DNA of 26,005 nt from a virus (taxonomy: Duplodnaviria; Heunggongvirae; Uroviricota; Caudoviricetes): IMG/VR virus record IMGVR_UViG_2703718840_000008; one strand, given 5' to 3'. The notes under the pieces were generated by a model that searched no databases, was not told the origin of the DNA, and worked only from the letters and a program-made list of their open reading frames with translations. The stretch's first letter is position 1. Each line of letters starts with the position of its first letter. The translations under genes and the position numbers were made by a program. Positions 12,857-26,005 of this stretch are shown here, piece by piece.

Positions 12857-15193
12857 TTACAAATATGTATTGCTATGTAGAGATGTGTTTATTCCATCTT
12901 CTATCTCAATTTTTGACGAAGCATACTCATCATTCGCACTATCATCAATATCAAACTCATCTTGTAGATGAAGTGACTCATTTAACGGTTTATAAAACTC
13001 ACCCATCATCATTTTGTAATGGGCAGTATGCTCACTACACTCAAATATCTTCTGAAAAACAATTAAATATTTTTGCACAGACTCCGTATCTAAATTCATA
13101 TAAAGATCATCACCTGCAAAATGAGAACCATCATTAATCCATGACACTAAAGATTTAAATATGATTTTTTCATCACCATAAAAATGACACTCAAGCTTCC
13201 TAATATCCATCCCTCCTAATATCTTAAAGTAATTCTCCAAAATCCTTCGCATTGTATTTTGTATAGTATTATTATTAATATCTGTTCTTCTCAATTCGCA
13301 CCAGAGCAAATCATAAGACGTTTTTATTGGGTTTGATTCGCACTTTTCAAGATATGAGACCTTCCCTTTTTTCCTTACAATCCAAAAAGTCTCCTCTTTC
13401 ATTGCTTGATTACCGGATCTTTTAGTATTAAAAGTCAACTCTTTATGAAAATAAATATTATGCGTAAGGAATATAATTTGCTTAATATTTCCTTCATCCT
13501 TACGAACATCCTCCATTAAATCTTTAATCAACGAACTTACAATAAACAGAATATCACTATCTAAACTTGAAATTGGATCATCAAATACTACAACACGATC
13601 ATCTAAAACACCTGATGCATTATCACTCCCTCTAACAAGACTATAAAAATACAAAAAAGTGATAAATGTCTTTTCTCCCTCGCTAAGAGTTGTACGAGCA
13701 TTATCTCCACTATCTCTCACTATCATATAATGCTTTTTATCTTCGGAGGGTTTTAAGTAAAAATTTTTGAAGCCATAAGAATCCAGAATCTTGTTAATTT
13801 TTGTAATAGTTGGAAGAGTACTGGTTTTATTAGACTCAATTGCCTCAATAGCCGAAGCATTTAACATTAACTTCTTTTTGTCTTCCTCTAACCCAGATTT
13901 AAGTCCTTGTAACCTCCTACTAAATTTATCAGATTCGCTACGGTAAGAAGTTATTTCAGACTTTAACTCCACCTTTACGATATATGCCCATATCTGATTA
14001 GAAAGATTACTAACCTCTACCTTTCTATTACTGTGTATTTTGTTATTATTATCTATCAATAGATTTGAATCATTCAAAAAAGAAATAAAATCATCAACAA
14101 CTTCACTTAAGTCACTAAAATGAACTGATTCACTTAAAAAATTGCGTTTGTTTTTTGCTAATTCAAAATTCTTGTTTAATTCAGATAATACTATCTTAGC
14201 CTTATCCTCAAATACTTCATAATTTATGAATGGAGATTTAATCGCCCTTATATCATCTATCGCCTGCAAGATATTATTAAGTTGATGTTCATATTGTAAA
14301 ACCAATGCATCGATTTCTCTTTTTTTTAACTCATATGTTTTATCAAAATATGATGATAGATTATCAAATATATTATCATTTACATCCTGCTGGCAGAATG
14401 GGCACTTGGGATTAGATTTACTGAAATATGTTAAACCTTCCTTAACCCAATCACTGTTATTGAGCATTGTAATTAAGTCTGAAACACTAACGTCTTTTTT
14501 CCCTAGAATACGCTCACTCCAAATCTCCCTACTCAAAATATCATCTATCCCATTGAAGGATGGAATTGTAATTGATACATGTGATGTCAATTCAGTAGAA
14601 AAAACAATTTTTGCTTTCTCAATTAGCTCTGCTATTGAGCAAACTTCTGATGTGTTATTTTCATACTCAGCCAACACTCTAGCTTTAAATTTTTCACTAC
14701 TATTCCTTAATCCCTCAAAAGCCTTTGAGAACACATTATCATGTTTTATTTTTTGCTTCCAACATGAATCTTTAAAAGATTTTTCATGGTCTTCGATTTG
14801 TTTAACAACGCCTAATATATTATCACCACCATCTATTAGCTTTTCCTTTGCTATAATAGATTCTATTAGCTTATTTTTTTCTTCTTCAAGAGATATTAGT
14901 TTCTCTTCATCCTCCTTAAGATCGCTACCAAGGGTAAATACACCTTTAATTTTATCTTGACTAAAATTTCTTTCAACAAAATCTTTATTATATACGTAGC
15001 TTATTAAAGATATATTATTTTTCCATTTAATCGGACATGTTGGATATTGTTCAGGGTCATTAATAATTTTACTTATAGTTGTTTTACCTGCACCATTAGC
15101 TCCATATAAATAGTTAAATTTAGAAAGCCCATGTAAAAGCTGAGTAGGGCCATTATATGAGCCTACTTTGTCAATAACTACCTCTTCAATCAT
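12857..15193 (-). CDS. RloC/PrrC-like ABC-type ATPase (AAA_13-like) with Rad50-type CxxC zinc hook; candidate anticodon nuclease / abortive-infection protein
   Basis: 778-aa ORF, ~30% GC. N-terminal Walker A GANGAGKTT; long predicted coiled-coil region containing CPFC; ABC signature-like LSEGEK; Walker B VVVFDDPISSLD; H-loop-like FLTHN; C-terminal ~200 aa with an RRILE (R-x3-E) motif and downstream His residues, reminiscent of the PrrC/RloC nuclease triad. GAGGA RBS upstream. Confidence 0.6.
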   Translation of the reverse strand: MIEEVVIDKVGSYNGPTQLLHGLSKFNYLYGANGAGKTTISKIINDPEQYPTCPIKWKNNISLISYVYNKDFVERNFSQDKIKGVFTLGSDLKEDEEKLISLEEEKNKLIESIIAKEKLIDGGDNILGVVKQIEDHEKSFKDSCWKQKIKHDNVFSKAFEGLRNSSEKFKARVLAEYENNTSEVCSIAELIEKAKIVFSTELTSHVSITIPSFNGIDDILSREIWSERILGKKDVSVSDLITMLNNSDWVKEGLTYFSKSNPKCPFCQQDVNDNIFDNLSSYFDKTYELKKREIDALVLQYEHQLNNILQAIDDIRAIKSPFINYEVFEDKAKIVLSELNKNFELAKNKRNFLSESVHFSDLSEVVDDFISFLNDSNLLIDNNNKIHSNRKVEVSNLSNQIWAYIVKVELKSEITSYRSESDKFSRRLQGLKSGLEEDKKKLMLNASAIEAIESNKTSTLPTITKINKILDSYGFKNFYLKPSEDKKHYMIVRDSGDNARTTLSEGEKTFITFLYFYSLVRGSDNASGVLDDRVVVFDDPISSLDSDILFIVSSLIKDLMEDVRKDEGNIKQIIFLTHNIYFHKELTFNTKRSGNQAMKEETFWIVRKKGKVSYLEKCESNPIKTSYDLLWCELRRTDINNNTIQNTMRRILENYFKILGGMDIRKLECHFYGDEKIIFKSLVSWINDGSHFAGDDLYMNLDTESVQKYLIVFQKIFECSEHTAHYKMMMGEFYKPLNESLHLQDEFDIDDSANDEYASSKIEIEDGINTSLHSNTYL

Positions 15194-15897: not shown

Positions 15898-16869
15898 CTA
15901 ACTTCCCTTTATTTTTAGTTCGTTAAAAATATCTTCGATTACCAATCCATTTTTAATTAAATGCTGCACAATATTTTCATATTCTTTGAAATTGTCAATA
16001 TGCAAGCCATGATCTTTTTCTTTAGCAATTCTCGTGATCACATGTACGCTATCTATATAATCAATCTTATTTTTAAGAGCATTGAGCAAACTTATACTTG
16101 GATTTAAAGTTGAGATTAGTTTACCAAACTCGGTTTGTAACTCTTTGGATTGATGAGTATTAATATAATCTTCAATAAAAGCATCAAAATCTCCTTGCAA
16201 CTCAACTTTAAGGTTTGCTATATCCTTCATAATATTTTCTAACTCAGAAGAGTATGGCCGACCATGTTTAAAATCGAATAAAAAAAGATTTGCTTTCTCA
16301 ATACATTCGCAAATATAAAAAACTGTATAAAGGGAATATTTTTGCTTAACTTTTAATTTTCCATAGGCGTAGTGAACCAAAAGATGCTTAGCATTAATAA
16401 CATTTTTATTTTTTGAAAGTTGATTGTTAGTTGCAGGCGGATAAATTACCACATCAACATTATCTAAATTTTGAAAAGTTTTTAAAATAAGAGCCTCAAC
16501 CTTATTCCAATCGAGGCCCCCATTACCACAGCCTAAAGGTGGTATTGATATTGATGTAATTTTTTTTTCATCTATAATTTTTGCTAAAGATTCAAGGCCT
16601 TGCGAGATAAAATCATATGTTGATTTTTTTCTCCAACTATCTTTAGTGGGAAAGTTTACAATTATTTTTCCCTTTTCCTCTACAATTAAAACCTGTCCAA
16701 TTTTCATTGTACCAGTGGCGCATGCTCTCTTATAAACTTCGAAATTATAGGGAAAAGTTTCTTTAAAAGCCAAAGCAATACCCTTTCCCATGACTCCTTG
16801 GCAGTTTACAGCATTCACAAGAGCTTGCGATGTAGAGTTTAGAAGATTTCCGCTTGCATACTTAATCAT
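15898..16869 (-). CDS. darG: DarG-like antitoxin (N-terminal macrodomain, ADP-ribosyl hydrolase)
   Basis: 323-aa ORF; N-terminal ~150 aa show macrodomain hallmarks (GNLL, ALVNAVNC, GVMGKGIALAF, IPPLGCGNGGL); starts 4 nt after the darT stop, giving the toxin-then-antitoxin operon order. Confidence 0.75.
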   Translation of the reverse strand: MIKYASGNLLNSTSQALVNAVNCQGVMGKGIALAFKETFPYNFEVYKRACATGTMKIGQVLIVEEKGKIIVNFPTKDSWRKKSTYDFISQGLESLAKIIDEKKITSISIPPLGCGNGGLDWNKVEALILKTFQNLDNVDVVIYPPATNNQLSKNKNVINAKHLLVHYAYGKLKVKQKYSLYTVFYICECIEKANLFLFDFKHGRPYSSELENIMKDIANLKVELQGDFDAFIEDYINTHQSKELQTEFGKLISTLNPSISLLNALKNKIDYIDSVHVITRIAKEKDHGLHIDNFKEYENIVQHLIKNGLVIEDIFNELKIKGS

Positions 16870-16873
16870 AGAA

Positions 16874-17455
16874 TTAGAACATATAAGTGTTGATCGTTAT
16901 CAATATACTTAATCCTTGTTGTTTTATCAACCCTTCAACATATTTTTTTTCGTTATCATTTTTGACAAAGATGCAATGGAAATTTTTCGGCTCGACCGTT
17001 ACACTTGATAAACACTCAGCCATACATACAGATTTGCATTCTGCATTTTTATAATCCCTTATATTCATTAGCTCCCAGTCAATTTGGGCCATTCCTTGTT
17101 CATAATCTAAGAGGTCTATAACAGAACTGGTGGATAATGGATGTTTAGGTATAACTTTCCAACCATTTTCTTTGGCAAATGCCCGACAAACCGAAATAAT
17201 ACAAAATGATTTTTCCTTATGATCTTTCAGGACTCTTCCATCAAATGGATTCTTAGTAAAGAAATGAAAAGGAACCATTGTTTGCAAATTTAATGCTTCG
17301 CGACCTGTTATTATTTCACCGTCGGCCACATCAACAAACTCACCTTTTACTGATGCACGAGATCTTAATCCTGTGTCTAAAATACTAGGTAGATTATCCA
17401 TACATGTTAAATGATAGAGAAGATACTGATCTTCAATTCTTTTCCTTTCGCTCAT
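16874..17455 (-). CDS. darT: DarT-like toxin (DUF4433 ssDNA ADP-ribosyltransferase)
   Basis: 193-aa ORF with YLLYHLTCMDNLPSIL N-terminal motif, MVPFHFF, and a glutamate in CMAECL, matching the DarT family pattern as I recall it; AGGA-type RBS upstream. Confidence 0.72.
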   Translation of the reverse strand: MSERKRIEDQYLLYHLTCMDNLPSILDTGLRSRASVKGEFVDVADGEIITGREALNLQTMVPFHFFTKNPFDGRVLKDHKEKSFCIISVCRAFAKENGWKVIPKHPLSTSSVIDLLDYEQGMAQIDWELMNIRDYKNAECKSVCMAECLSSVTVEPKNFHCIFVKNDNEKKYVEGLIKQQGLSILITINTYMF

Positions 17456-17922
17456 TTCAACTCATCCTTTCAAATTCGTAAGTCTATTTATAGAACCAAA
17501 CCTCACTGACAGTCAAGGTTTTTAAGATTATTCACATTGCCTTCTGCCTGTCGATCTAATTATTTTCGATTTTTTGGGTATGATTTGGCATTATTGATAT
17601 ACAAGGTAAAACAATTTTTCAGTAGTTTACTGACGCTGAGTGATTACGATTGCTAGCTTGGGAAGGCAATGGCCATAGTGCATGTGCTGAACAAAATGAA
17701 AAAGGCAGGGACATTCTGGTCTTCCCCATGAGTATGGATTTTCATTGCATCGATGGGTATGAGCAACGTCCCCTTGATTAAGGATAGCGTTGCATCGTCC
17801 CGTTGAACTCACAACACAAATCGTACAATCACTTATCAAAATGGCCGCCCACCTTACGCCTCGTTTCACTCGCTACCCAAACTAGCCCCCATCAGAATGA
17901 ATCCTCCTGGGGGCAACGTTTC

Positions 17923-18156
17923 TTAATGCAGCCAGCTGTCGTCTTCCCACACCTTCTGCATAATTTTCATCACTTGTTTTCTTTCTTCATCCAGTTGCAG
18001 TCCGGTCAGTTCCACACCGTTAGAGCTACCTTTACGGATACGAATTACCGTTTTGGGATATAGGGGGCGCAGATTGCGGTAAAGCTCGGATTCAAGGGCG
18101 TCCAGGGTAGACTGGCTAATCTTCTGCTCTTTATCGATCATTATTTCAATGCGCAT
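17923..18156 (-). CDS. DinI-like protein (equivalent to the C-terminal domain of 186 antirepressor Tum)
   Basis: 77-aa product from the ATG at 18156 (MRIEIMIDKEQKIS...ESELYRNL...KIMQKVWEDDSW) resembling DinI; GAGGTG RBS overlaps the stop of the upstream ORF. The 101-aa track ORF is an upstream extension. Confidence 0.7.
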   Translation of the reverse strand: MRIEIMIDKEQKISQSTLDALESELYRNLRPLYPKTVIRIRKGSSNGVELTGLQLDEERKQVMKIMQKVWEDDSWLH

Positions 18157-18166
18157 AAAAGTCACC

Positions 18167-18355
18167 TCAACTGATGACATCCATTGAGCGGTTGTATTCG
18201 TGGGTTCTGATTTTTGCCATGAGTTCATCTGTCAGTTCAGAAACCCACTGCAGGGCCAGCCCCTTCTCTTCATCACTACACTCACTAGCCGCTACAAGCT
18301 TAAGAAAAAAATCAATGCGCTGGAGCTTCAAAGACTCCAAAAAATAGTCCTGCAT
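18167..18355 (-). CDS. Small protein, possible N-terminal part of a Tum-like antirepressor (SOS-controlled)
   Basis: 62-aa ORF from the ATG at 18355 preceded by AGGAGG; translationally coupled to the dinI-like ORF; a LexA box lies 45-60 bp upstream. Confidence 0.5.
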   Translation of the reverse strand: MQDYFLESLKLQRIDFFLKLVAASECSDEEKGLALQWVSELTDELMAKIRTHEYNRSMDVIS

Positions 18356-18398
18356 TTTTCCTCCTATGACACCACAAGCAATACTGTAAATATAACCA

Positions 18399-18414
18399 CT
18401 GTTTATATTTACAG
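18399..18414. promoter_or_regulatory. LexA (SOS) box upstream of the tum-like operon
   Basis: cACTGTttatatttACAGta matches the CTGT-N8-ACAG consensus with flanking A/T; a second half-site-like CTGT lies at 18384-18387. Confidence 0.7.
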
Positions 18415-18508
18415 TATATAATAATCTTACTGATGTAAAACGTTTTTTTACGTTCATCAGCCTGATATGCCTGGTATTATTAAGAGCACGAATTGTTAAC
18501 CCGCGTAA

Positions 18509-20923
18509 TTAATACAGGTTTCGCCACTTATCATCTTCCTGCAAACGCTGGTTCCGATAGAAGATACGCAGGCCTGCTCCTGACGGAATACTGCCGCCGC
18601 GAAGGAGTAAATCGACCTCTTTCTCGCTGCCATCAAATCCTCTGGACTTCAGTTCATAGACGAGCTGCTGTCGTTGATGGTCTGTAATTCGCTGTTTGTA
18701 GTCTCTACGCCGTTTCGGCTTCACCAGGCGTAACCTTGCTGCCAGTTCCCGGCGCTCTTTTTTGCTCATACTGTGCAGGTAATCGTGCAACTCCTTGTCA
18801 TCCATGCGGGTAATGTCCGTTCTGGTGTCCCCATCAGCTGATTTGTCTTTCCCTTGTTGGTTCAAATTTTCAGCAAGGGGATAGTTATTGCCACGAGTCC
18901 AAGGGGCGCAAGCGCCCTGTTCGGCTGCCGCCTCCTGAACGTCAACGGCCTTACGAACCATTTTCCACTTCACTGCATGAGTGCAGATCTTGCCCTCTGC
19001 AATGGGTGACCAGATGCCATAAATACGAATACCGTGATCGCCATAGGCGGTCGGCTCTTCGTTAATTTCATAAGCTGTTCTGATAAGGTGATATTTGCGG
19101 GGAACCAGCACGCCGCCCTGCTTCATGATGTAGGTCGCAAAACAGCCAGCATCAGCAGCAGCCAGGATGGCATCAAGGCGTGGGTTATCCAGTACCGGCG
19201 CACCTGCTTTTATGTCACCCTGCTGCCTTGCCGCCTGACCAGCCAGCAATCGCAGTTCACGATAAGCCTGACGCCCCGGAATACCAAAGAAGCGGAATTG
19301 CTGAACACGATGCAGAGACGCCCAGGCATTCACGTATTCAGCGTTATCACGCAGGGATTTACCCGTTTCCTTGCTGATCTCGCCAGCCAGACCACGCCCG
19401 TCAATGTTCTTACTGATATATTTCGCGATGTAGCTTGTCGGCGTTCCTTTGCGCGGGTTAATCAACTCAGACTTAAAGCGCGGCCCCGTGTTATTGCCCA
19501 GCTCCTCGCGGTCTTCACGGATGGCAAACTTACGCAGTAATGCAGTGATGGCGCGGCGGTCTTTTTTGCGCATAAAACACAACAGGTGCCAGTGAACTGT
19601 ACCGTCATGATGTGGCTCAGCCACCCGCACGCCATACCACCGCAATCCGGCTTTGTGCATCGCCTTACGAAATGCAGCAAACATGCCGACCAGATAATCA
19701 CTGCTTTGTCTTACCGTCGCATTTGTCCAGGTCGGGTTGGGCCTGCCGTTATTTAGCGTGGAATGGAAACGTGACGGACAGGTGATGGTGTAGAAAACGG
19801 CGCAGTCACCGCGCATTTCCGCGATAAGCTCCAGGCCTTTAACACAGGCCATCATCTCATTGCGGCGATGCGCAGGGTTGCTGCTGCTGGCGTTTACCAC
19901 ATCCTCCATGTCCAGCGTGTCGCCGTCTTCGTTCACCAGTTCATGAGAACGAAAAAACTCCAGCGACTTACGGCGCTGCTCACGTTTATGCATCACGGCT
20001 TCATAGCTGACATAGGGAGATGCTTTTTTGCTGACCAGGCAGACAGCACGCAACTGCTCTTCCCGCCATTCGCAACGCATCTTCCATAATTTCCGGTACC
20101 ACCAGTCAGCGCACAACATACGCGCCAGCGAACCCGGAATGAGTTCATAGGGCACGGGTTTACGGCGGTTTCTTTTCCGGCGGAGTTGCTCAAACGCAGG
20201 CGGTATGACATCCAGTCGCAGGGTTTCTGCTGCCACCTTTTCCCATGTCTTGCGGATTTCTTCAGGCTTAACGTCATCGGTGGCATACAAATCGCCACAA
20301 GCTGCATCAAGGCACATGCTCATATGCGCAGCAACAAGGGTGGACAGGCGTTTCACCTGATCCTGACTCATTTCAGGCAGAATCAGCAGGCCGTCCAGCC
20401 CTTCATGGCTTGCCATAAAGCGAAAAGAAGTGGATAGCTGACTGTCGCGTACATGCTCCAGCCGTTCCAGACATGGCTTAATCGTCTCACGCAAATAGCG
20501 GGAATAAGCCTTTGGCCTGCCAAGGCTGCTGAAGTATTCAATACGTTGCATCAGCGGCTTGCTGATATGGGAAGGCTGGGCATTGACGTCCGCCAGAATG
20601 ACCATATCTGGATTAAAACGCTGCTGCTCATGCGCCAGCTTTGCCCGACTAATGAGCTTATCCTGCTCCATTTCGCGCTGGACAGGATCACGGGATTCAT
20701 TAAAGAAATAACGCTCCCAGACCTGATCACTCAGTGCCTCGCGGCGCAGCTGTTCCTGCTCGTTATCGGCAGCGTACAGAGTGATCAGGTTTGAAAGCGC
20801 AGAAACCGGCGCAACTTCCGCCGGGTCCAGATAAGGGTTAATGGCCTTTTTCGGGCTGTTCCATGAGAACGATGCGGCAGCCTCGTTAAAGCCGCAGCAG
20901 TTGTTCATATCGGCATGGCTCAT
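18509..20923 (-). CDS. A: Replication initiation protein gpA (rolling-circle initiator)
   Basis: 804-aa ORF at the position and scale of P2 gene A (761 aa), downstream of dam and the early genes; start overlaps the dam stop (ATGA). Confidence 0.85.
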
Positions 20924-23842: not shown

Positions 23843-23987
23843 AAGGCAACATTCCTTCTAGATATGGCTTGTGGCGAGCCGTTGTTTGTCGTGATTAGTA
23901 GTGAAGGCTCCAAAAGAACACTTCTGGTTCAACTTTAAGATCGCTTTTGGAATCTGTCAACGAATTTTGGATTTCTTTGGAGGACTT

Positions 23988-24557
23988 GTGGATTTCAATA
24001 GCGGCGGTAAGAAAGCCATAGAACGTTTAGTTGAAGCATATGGGTTCGGTACTCGTCAGGCTCTCTGTGATCATTTAGGTGTTTCTAAGAGCACCATGGC
24101 AACGCGCTATATGCGTGATATTTTTCCAGCAGATTGGGTAATCCAGTGCGCCCTTGAAACGGGCACCTCGCTTAATTGGCTAACAACAGGGCATGGTTCA
24201 AAGCAAGCATCAGCAAATACAAATACTATAGAAGTAGAAAAATATTTATTGTCTGATGGAGCATTGCAGAAAGACGGTTTTTATATTTTTGATAAGGGAT
24301 TTCTACCCTCTACGTTTAAAAAACCTTTTGTCATCACAGATAACAATTCTGAATTTATTTGTGATAAAGAATTTGATGATATACGTGATGGTAAATGGGT
24401 AATAAGTATTGATGGCGAAATAACGATCCGTGACATTACTCGTTTACCCGGTGGAAGAATCTTCGTCGAGGGTGGAAACAGAGCCTTCGAATGCAAGATA
24501 GAAGACATTGAAATAATTGGTAAAATTATAAGTTTAACAGTCAAGTATGTTAAATAG
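23988..24557 (+). CDS. cI: 186 CI-type immunity repressor
   Basis: Product of about 190 aa, divergent from apl, with N-terminal HTH-like region (LVEAYGF...ALETGTSLNWLTTG). The start is uncertain: the track ORF begins at a GTG at 23901, while a GTG at 23988 follows a GGAGGA motif. Confidence 0.7.
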   Translation: MDFNSGGKKAIERLVEAYGFGTRQALCDHLGVSKSTMATRYMRDIFPADWVIQCALETGTSLNWLTTGHGSKQASANTNTIEVEKYLLSDGALQKDGFYIFDKGFLPSTFKKPFVITDNNSEFICDKEFDDIRDGKWVISIDGEITIRDITRLPGGRIFVEGGNRAFECKIEDIEIIGKIISLTVKYVK

Positions 24558-24764: not shown

Positions 24765-24952
24765 TTTTTGTTTTTATATCTGCGTCTAAAATAAAAATGA
24801 GCCGCAGGTTAACCGCAAAAGTTACATGCTCACATAGCAAAAAGAATAGCCAACTTCATTATGGCTTCAGTGAGATGTATGGTCGTAGGATTTCATACAT
24901 TGACACTGGTTATACATACAGTAAAAATGCTCTCTACTGGAGGGCATTTTTT

Positions 24953-26005
24953 ATGGCAGTACGAAAACTCACCACAGGGAAATGGCTTTGCGAATGTTAC
25001 CCCGCCGGACGAAGTGGGCGTCGTGTGCGTAAACAATTCGCCACCAAAGGCGAAGCTCTGGCTTTTGAGCGTCACACGATGGAAGAAACCGAATCAAAGC
25101 CCTGGCTGGGCGAATCAGTGGATCGTCGAACCCTGAAAGACGTGGTTGAGCTATGGTTCAAACTACATGGTAAATCTCTGACTGCTGGACAGCATGTCTA
25201 TGACAAATTGCTGCTGATGGTTGACGCTCTAGGCAATCCTCTTGCAACCGATCTCACCTCTAAAATGTTTGCCCACTATCGAGATAAACGCCTGACAGGC
25301 GAGATCTACTTCAGCGAGAAATGGAAGAAAGGAGCAAGCCCGGTCACCATTAACCTGGAGCAAAGCTATCTAAGTAGTGTTTTTAGCGAACTATCCCGTC
25401 TGGGCGAATGGTCGTATCCGAACCCACTGGAGAACATGCGAAAATTCACCATCGCAGAAAAAGAGATGGCATGGCTTACCCATGAGCAGATTGTTGAATT
25501 GCTGGCTGATTGCAAACGTCAGGACCCAATTCTGGCACTGGTAGTTAAGATATGCTTAAGCACAGGCGCACGCTGGCGTGAAGCCGTAAATCTTACCCGC
25601 TCACAGGTGACCAAATACCGAATTACCTTTGTCAGAACGAAGGGGAAGAAAAACAGAAGCATCCCTATCAGTAAAGAGCTTTACGAAGAGATCATGGCGC
25701 TTGATGGGTTCAATTTCTTCACAGACTGCTATTTTCAATTTTTATCCGTGATGGAAAAAACGTCTATCGTGCTCCCTCGCGGTCAACTCACACACGTTCT
25801 GCGCCATACGTTTGCGGCGCACTTCATGATGTCGGGTGGAAACATTCTGGCCTTACAAAAAATTCTCGGACACCACGATATAAAAATGACTATGCGTTAC
25901 GCACATCTGGCACCGGATCATCTGGAAACGGCGCTCCGTTTCAATCCTCTGGCAACGCTGCCAAGTGGCGACAAAGTGGCGGCAGCGGTTGGCATTACCC
26001 CGTAA
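24953..26005 (+). CDS. int: Tyrosine integrase (P2/186 type)
   Basis: 350-aa product from the ATG at 24953 (GGAGGG RBS); C-terminal catalytic region contains the R...HxxR...Y pattern (ARWREA, HVLRHTFAAH, MTMRYAHL); transcribed toward the expected att site beyond the window edge. Confidence 0.9.
   Translation: MAVRKLTTGKWLCECYPAGRSGRRVRKQFATKGEALAFERHTMEETESKPWLGESVDRRTLKDVVELWFKLHGKSLTAGQHVYDKLLLMVDALGNPLATDLTSKMFAHYRDKRLTGEIYFSEKWKKGASPVTINLEQSYLSSVFSELSRLGEWSYPNPLENMRKFTIAEKEMAWLTHEQIVELLADCKRQDPILALVVKICLSTGARWREAVNLTRSQVTKYRITFVRTKGKKNRSIPISKELYEEIMALDGFNFFTDCYFQFLSVMEKTSIVLPRGQLTHVLRHTFAAHFMMSGGNILALQKILGHHDIKMTMRYAHLAPDHLETALRFNPLATLPSGDKVAAAVGITP

Follow-up and report, generated by a model that had tools for sequence, protein, structure and literature searches.

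A predicted SOS induction module of the tumA-tumB type in a Fels-2/186-like prophage of Escherichia coli

A tumA-tumB-type operon behind gene A

The two-gene operon downstream of gene A in the window (the whole 26,005-nt stretch of DNA that was analysed) is very probably the SOS induction module, of the tumA-tumB type, of a Fels-2/186-type (P2-like) Escherichia coli prophage (Table 1). In the lysogen, host LexA would occupy an operator over the -10 hexamer of a promoter resembling p95 of phage 186 and keep the operon off, and DNA damage would open this promoter through RecA-stimulated self-cleavage of LexA. The first product (ORF1), a predicted helical-hairpin protein, would then bind the non-cleavable 186-type repressor CI encoded in the same window, most likely at its N-terminal DNA-binding domain, and stop CI from holding its operators, whereupon the lytic promoter would fire and the prophage would be induced. 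The second product (ORF2), a free-standing DinI homologue, would act on RecA filaments and tune the SOS signal, and would be dispensable for the module. The present analysis supplies the anatomy, homology, conservation, selection and covariation of the locus. The literature on its relatives supplies the evidence that 186 Tum is controlled by LexA and acts as an antirepressor, the reported lexA-null lethality of Fels-2 and the activity of PSP3 tumA.

The surroundings are those of a Fels-2/186-type prophage. CI and the integrase are encoded on the strand opposite to the operon, CII, a Dam methylase and gpA on the operon strand, and the portal and terminase genes lie beyond a cargo region. The gene for gpA (Pfam PF05840, E 1.4e-127) ends at 18509 on the minus strand, 154 nt before the ORF1 start codon, and the operon follows it directly in a prophage whose CI is of the 186 type and non-self-cleaving by profile.

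Table 1. Features of the operon, its flanks and the repressor gene, with positions in the window
Feature	Position	Strand	Details
Hairpin	18429..18461	-	Between the gene A stop (18509) and the SOS promoter; 3' arm holds the -35 hexamer
-35 hexamer TTTACA	18434..18439	-	Read from the sequence; 17-nt spacer to the -10; p95-like SOS promoter
-10 hexamer TACTGT	18411..18416	-	Doubles as the left half of LexA box 1
LexA operator, box 1 (20-mer TACTGTAAATATAAACAGTG)	18397..18416	-	Perfect CTGT-N8-ACAG core; overlaps the -10
Second, imperfect LexA-like box CAGTGGTTATATTTACAGTA	18382..18401	-	Core GTGG-N8-ACAG; 5-bp overlap with box 1
ORF1, tumA-like, putative SOS-induced antirepressor	18167..18355	-	62 aa; Shine-Dalgarno AGGAGG at 18365..18360; ATG at 18355; TGA at 18169..18167
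Shine-Dalgarno GAGGTGA of ORF2	18162..18168	-	Read from the sequence; overlaps the ORF1 TGA
ORF2, DinI family, tumB-like	17923..18156	-	77 aa; Pfam PF06183
Weak hairpin	17885..17914	-	Directly 3' of the ORF2 stop; dG -20.4 kcal/mol, z -1.95, poor U-tail
DarT	17455..16874	-	PADLOC E 2.2e-36; anti-phage defence cargo in the slot after the DinI gene
DarG	16869..15898	-	PADLOC E 9.8e-81
AAA_13/PDC-S06 candidate defence protein	15193..12857	-	778 aa; E 8e-266
186-type CI immunity repressor, presumed target of ORF1	23901..24557	+	PF07022 E 3.3e-31; PF16452 E 4.7e-29
Integrase ORF	24797..26005	+	Ends at the last base of the window; Int_N domain begins at residue 109

The LexA operator and its promoter

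The predicted operator is a LexA box with a perfect core lying over a conserved -10 hexamer, the arrangement of a LexA-repressed promoter of the p95 type. An earlier note on this DNA had pointed to a near-consensus LexA box ahead of the 62-codon frame, and the box is indeed present on the minus strand as the single perfect core of the window. The CTGT-N8-ACAG core occurs once in the 26 kb with 0.18 occurrences expected, and 15 of 100 shuffled sequences held at least one; the stricter 19-mer TACTGTWWWTATWWACAGT, allowing at most one mismatch, was found in 0 of 100 shuffles. In a survey of 34 homologous loci across Enterobacterales (one genome per species), the core of box 1 is perfect (8/8) in 23 loci and matches at 7/8 positions in 8 more, one of the remaining 3 loci being without upstream sequence. 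A perfect core also stands 5' of the TumA-like gene in all eight other divergent P2-like phages examined. With box 1 as the anchor of the alignment, the loci preserve the -35 TTTACA, a 17-nt spacer and the -10 TACTGT, and TTTACA or TTTCAC is kept at the -35 position in nearly all 34 loci. The 34 Enterobacterales genomes, each from a different species, and the 8 divergent P2-like phages retain box, promoter and ORF1, and this conservation is far beyond chance.

The p95 promoter of 186 is annotated as TTCACA-18 nt-TACTGT with a LexA site that starts at the -10, and the promoter of the window has the same design; LexA control is a prediction made at the sequence level. A generic sigma-70 promoter scan did not pick up the SOS promoter, because only three of the six positions of its -10 hexamer match TATAAT.

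The second box extends the operator in one part of the family. The ACAG motif repeats 11 nt past the ACAG of box 1 in about 25 of the 32 loci with a box 1; the second box is conserved in the Fels-2 clade, whereas 186, PSP3 and the short-leader Pantoea loci lack it. This half-operator may tighten LexA repression or make it cooperative. Upstream of the promoter, the hairpin that holds the -35 hexamer in its 3' arm has a folding energy of -12.6 kcal/mol (RNA fold, z -3.4), equalled in 2 of 200 shuffles, and is probably a terminator or insulator against upstream early-lytic transcription. Terminator-like palindromes also precede the LexA boxes of the analogous Gifsy loci (Lemire et al., PMC3121763). 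An Rfam search of positions 17300-18600 returned a chance miRNA match only (E 0.85).

The products of ORF1 and ORF2

ORF1 encodes a small protein of conserved length that is maintained by selection. PGAP predicts the identical 62-aa coding sequence and labels it 'hypothetical protein', and the product is 98% identical to STM2728 of Fels-2, with one residue differing (S62N). The length is 62 aa in 29 of the 34 loci, and the gene has its own stop codon in all of them. Against 28 diverged loci, pN/pS is 0.09-0.38 at a pS of 0.45-0.85, and purifying selection acts on ORF1 up to its last codons. An AlphaFold2 model predicts a two-helix hairpin (H2-23 and H28-61, pLDDT 89) with the conserved Cys26 in its turn. 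A Foldseek comparison of the model with the PDB retrieved generic helical hairpins only (best E 0.68), and ORF1 had no match in Pfam, PADLOC, or PDB profile and sequence searches.

Other readings of the frame were rejected. A 96-aa extended version (ATG 18457) starts 5' of the promoter and LexA box, and the Shine-Dalgarno-preceded ATG at 18355 is both the conserved start and the one that PGAP uses. The plus-strand ORFs 18200..18421 and 17803..18063 were rejected on the same grounds of conservation and selection. Among the relatives, many gene calls place the start of the TumA-like ORF 5' of its own promoter, which lengthens it to 87-101 aa.

ORF2 is a full-length member of the DinI family. It covers positions 1-63 of the 63 in PF06183 (E 6.6e-23), aligns with the E. 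coli DinI structure 1GHH over its full length (residues 1-75 against 1-77, E 2.7e-6) and matches phrog_189 (E 1.5e-29). Its acidic C-terminal helix (..QKVWEDDSW) aligns with the counterpart in E. coli DinI, and by analogy with DinI the protein is predicted to act on RecA filaments. PGAP labels its counterpart in the E. coli chromosome 'DinI-like family protein'. The two genes are closely coupled: the string TGAGGTGA holds both the TGA of ORF1 and the ribosome-binding site of ORF2, the TGA sharing letters with GAGGTGA, which agrees with the overlap that the earlier note described. At the other end of ORF2, the weak hairpin (Table 1), which the terminator scan did not pick up, may be a leaky terminator placed like t95a of 186.

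Relation to Tum of 186 and to TumA and TumB of PSP3

By profile comparison, the homology of ORF1 to the N-terminal half of 186 Tum is distant but significant. ORF1 and Tum do not align in pairwise BLASTP, and identity to the Tum N-terminal half is only about 19%; the profile methods place the two in one Tum/TumA family. An hhalign comparison of the ORF1 clade with the clade of the Tum N-terminal half gave a probability of 96.4% and an E value of 1e-9 over columns 3-46 (44 columns). Both proteins also reach overlapping PHROG families: the Tum N-terminal half matches phrog_189, 1993, 8554 and 698 (phrog_698 at E 6.7e-6), ORF1 matches phrog_698, 8554 and 1993 (the last, the PSP3 TumA family, at E 2.2e-3), and PSP3 TumA matches phrog_1993. 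Intermediates between ORF1 and Tum occur in Yersinia (proteins annotated 'tum'), Erwinia, Cronobacter and Escherichia phages, and the shared core reads (Q/E)R(I/V)..h..h.A...C.......AL..h..E/D-h.

The C-terminal half of Tum corresponds to ORF2. In line with the earlier note, Tum is a single protein of 146 aa with a DinI-like C-terminal half; residues 71-145 of the 146 are 41% identical to ORF2 (E 3e-24). With ORF2 equivalent to this half, ORF1 a remote homologue of the other and the promoter geometry that of p95, the proposal that the operon is equivalent to a split Tum holds. The 186 locus further shares with the window a LexA-repressed promoter after gene A, a 186-type CI and a variable gene that follows (orf97). 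It differs in that a linker of about 26 residues joins its two modules into one protein, and its record annotates internal starts giving free DinI-like 'truncated Tum' forms in place of a separate cistron.

PSP3 provides the closer parallel in layout. Its record annotates a pair of cistrons, tumA and tumB, which follow gene A as an operon with a LexA box. TumB shares 78% identity with ORF2, and TumA, a reported antirepressor of 60 aa, belongs to the same superfamily as ORF1 with the motif C-x7-AL-x-hh-x-(D/E)-h. In contrast to the window, tumA and tumB share a reading frame, with one stop codon plus one codon between them, and lie behind a single LexA box, and TumA is only about 17-22% identical to ORF1 (PHROG 1993 versus 698).

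The split arrangement of tum is already documented. In the account of Lemire et al. (PMC3121763), 186 Tum is under LexA control, binds CI and blocks its operator binding; at roughly double the size of the Gifsy antirepressors and with a DinI-like second half, it suggested a fusion. The same authors describe the 186 tum region as split in two in Fels-2 and PSP3, with the upstream gene as the antirepressor, and relay for PSP3 that the antirepressor lies upstream and the DinI homologue downstream (Christie, personal communication, second-hand via Bunny et al. 2002). The dinI-gfoA/gftA loci of the Gifsy phages, and AntC of N15, are also LexA-controlled small antirepressors acting against non-cleavable repressors beside a dinI homologue (PMC3121763); they differ in having dinI as the leading gene, in their unrelated antirepressor and repressor families and in belonging to lambdoid, not P2-like, phages. 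The locus is an already described DNA-damage switch and adds no new principle.

One relative shows the N-terminal module by itself. A protein of the Erwinia phage ENT90 (L006, 659-898) matches 186 Tum (L001, 4083-4523) through the linker (..NQQFSVFFSAVPLEKQP) and then ends, and there is no DinI domain or gene downstream of it. It looks like a 186-type Tum minus its DinI half, or a pre-fusion state.

Covariation of TumA with the CI repressor

The presumed target of ORF1 is a mosaic repressor. The CI of the window, encoded 5.5 kb upstream of the operon, is 33% identical to 186 CI (E 8e-38), and its match to the S24 peptidase domain is below the cutoff. Its true start codon probably lies about 30 codons inside the ORF. 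The N-terminal helix-turn-helix domain is Fels-2-like (71% identity), whereas the C-terminal domain is 37-38% identical to those of Yersinia phage CIs versus 26% to that of Fels-2, and the 18-residue linker insertion of Fels-2-type CIs is lacking.

The similarity of TumA proteins tracks the N-terminal domain of CI, not its C-terminal domain or the neighbouring genes, which is a modest new point. Over whole CI proteins, the Mantel correlation of TumA with CI (r 0.45) is close to that of TumA with gpA (r 0.48), a result in which function is not separable from linkage; the whole-CI test is therefore uninformative, and only the domain split and the partial tests discriminate. In a sample that is small (11-15 phages) and phylogenetically non-independent, the identity of the TumA core correlates with that of the CI N-terminal domain at r 0.69 (p 1e-4; 11 phages with complete data), and the partial correlation is 0.55 (p 0.0013) given the adjacent gpA and 0.69 given CII. 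TumA is uncorrelated with the CI C-terminal domain (r 0.02) and with CII (r 0.09). Additionally, 186 and PSP3 are 91% identical in gpA and 81% in CII, but only 26% in TumA and 37% in the CI N-terminal domain, so two distant loci, TumA and the CI N-terminal domain, were exchanged together. The covariation speaks for TumA and CI as functional partners and singles out the DNA-binding domain as the likely target, with the caveat that this domain also co-evolves with its own operators. A literature search for the CI domain bound by Tum found nothing relevant.

An SOS-induced small protein with another job, directed at the host or at phage regulation, is the alternative that survives best, and we consider it unlikely. 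ORF1 would then leave prophage induction to something else. The homology to Tum is remote, our literature search found no direct experiment on this exact protein family, and identical TumA sequences accompany at least five CI variants, which in phages with an identical ORF1 are only 38-57% identical overall, an odd pattern at first sight for a specific antirepressor. However, these CI variants keep N-terminal helix-turn-helix domains that are 71-83% identical, against 24-42% for the C-terminal domains (multiple alignment), and it is the N-terminal domain that the TumA type follows. The position, promoter and operator of ORF1 are, moreover, those of 186 tum, and CI belongs to the 186 type, for which an antirepressor is required. 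In Salmonella, lexA-null lethality is reportedly attributed to Fels-2 in the title of a 2002 paper by Bunny, Liu and Roth, and such an effect fits an inducer held by LexA.

Keeping to ORF1 as the antirepressor of CI, a broader model can be sketched, although as a whole it is tentative and rather doubtful. TumA might recognise the conserved N-terminal DNA-binding domain of CI, so that the invariant 62-aa protein would serve as a common key for prophages with divergent C-terminal (oligomerisation) domains and would allow trans-induction between co-resident Fels-2-like prophages, with the 'one-and-a-half' LexA operator giving extra-tight SOS control.

Two separate genes

ORF1 and ORF2, each with a ribosome-binding site of its own, are truly separate genes and were never one broken gene. 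The gap between them is 10 nt, with ORF2 in the +1 frame relative to ORF1. Across the 34 loci, a DinI gene follows ORF1 in 19, at a gap of 9-13 nt, and is absent from 15; in the 19 loci its frame relative to ORF1 is 0, +1 and +2 in 6, 6 and 7 cases, respectively, and a G-rich Shine-Dalgarno sequence precedes it in 19/19 despite the varying spacing and frame. The ORF1 stop codon differs between close relatives (TGA, TAA, TAG). TumA-like genes without a DinI gene are also found in the phages ENT90, vB_YenM_324, vB_YenM_06.16-2, ESSI-2 and ESSI2_ev015. The DinI cistron is therefore facultative and frame-independent, an increment of the present work. Since frame, gap and stop codon are all variable, a conserved recoding signal and a recent 1-nt lesion are both incompatible with the locus.

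Searches for fused proteins agree with this picture. No ORF1-DinI fusion was found among 66 representative clusters (two weak outliers of 217 and 1218 aa left out), whose proteins were short or carried the ORF1 match at the C terminus, nor was a fused ORF1 relative present in 120 near homologues among the matches listed (of 484). In the phage collection, the fused form of Tum is restricted to close kin of 186, a tight clade with at least 91% identity to it. The fusion therefore looks like a derived state, and the single Tum of 186 would be the unusual arrangement.

Programmed recoding, in which a +1 frameshift or stop read-through yields an extra Tum-like fusion beside both separate products, is very improbable. 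A mixture of products is plausible in itself, as 186 is annotated with a full-length Tum and free DinI-like truncated forms from one gene, and a small hairpin spans the ORF1/ORF2 junction (dG -9.4). Yet this hairpin, the sole 'terminator' of the generic scan, was judged a chance structure, as it is neither significant (z -1.46) nor conserved in other junctions. A recoding site requires a frame relation that is conserved, together with a conserved slippery or stimulatory element, neither of which was found; frame, gap length and stop codon differ even between close relatives, and the DinI gene is missing from the 15 loci and several phages noted above.

A frameshift lesion, in which a once-fused 186-like tum was broken by a 1-nt indel and the induction gene damaged, is even harder to credit: the +1 frame of ORF2 fits it, and the DinI frame is open for 24 codons 5' of its ATG over the 3' end of ORF1 (uninformative, with a chance of about 0.3), but the two-gene layout with its own stop, Shine-Dalgarno sequence and ATG recurs in 19 of the 34 species-level genomes in three frames, ORF1 is selected to its last codons with neither the relaxed selection nor the intact fused orthologues in close relatives that mark a pseudogene, its tail does not resemble the linker of 186 Tum (residues 45-70), fusions are missing from the 66 representative clusters with the two weak outliers set aside, and the operon is carried by 21% of complete E. 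coli genomes.

The earlier note had left a lesion, a natural split and a recoding site side by side. The natural split stands, and the other two fall with the variable gap and frame and the selection on ORF1. The homologues are in all cases either two genes or ORF1 alone.

Distribution, cargo and annotation

The operon is essentially the same locus as in the Salmonella phage Fels-2. A 641-nt region comprising the end of gene A, the promoter, ORF1 and ORF2 is 98.5% identical to Fels-2; the gene order is unchanged, and the two loci agree in promoter, LexA box, 10-nt gap and +1 frame. Fels-2 is annotated with STM2728 (hypothetical) and STM2726.1 (DinI family, 'similar to TumB of PsP3'). The two prophages differ in host (Salmonella versus E. 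coli), in CI (38% identical overall, with 71% in the N-terminal and 26% in the C-terminal domain) and in what follows the DinI gene (STM2726/STM2723.1 versus DarT, DarG and PDC-S06). Other P2-like phages of Klebsiella, Escherichia and Salmonella, among the matches listed, are 96.7-98.2% identical, the top chromosomal match is E. coli TUM2820 (99.8%), and 1129 of 5426 complete E. coli genomes carry the operon.

The module would set when a very common prophage family of E. coli, Salmonella and Klebsiella wakes after DNA damage, for example by fluoroquinolones, and its biology is understood in outline from 186, PSP3 and Fels-2. What is added here is incremental. The DinI cistron proves facultative and frame-independent, a second LexA half-operator is conserved, ORF1 is modelled as a helical hairpin, TumA covaries with the N-terminal domain of CI, and annotation has a gap at this family. 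The practical value lies in annotation, as the antirepressor family is unnamed although roughly one in five complete E. coli genomes has it, and the domain-level covariation with CI offers a testable guess at the binding surface. The TumA-like family is without a Pfam model and is listed as 'unknown function' in PHROGs 698, 8554 and 1993. The label 'levan regulatory (domain) protein' on some TumA-like records looks spurious.

The slot behind the DinI gene is variable. Similarity to Fels-2 stops exactly at the ORF2 stop codon; the slot holds orf97 in 186, where it is part of the p95 SOS operon, STM2726/STM2723.1 in Fels-2 and the defence cargo in the window (Table 1). The junction with DarT is common to only 10 of the 5426 complete E. 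coli genomes. It is speculative, by analogy with 186 orf97, that read-through of the operon would place the DarTG/PDC-S06 cargo under SOS control. PGAP annotates a 'phage repressor protein CI' of 313 aa in the near-identical prophage of TUM2820, versus the 218-aa CI ORF of the window; the CI/int junction may differ between the two or may have been mis-called.
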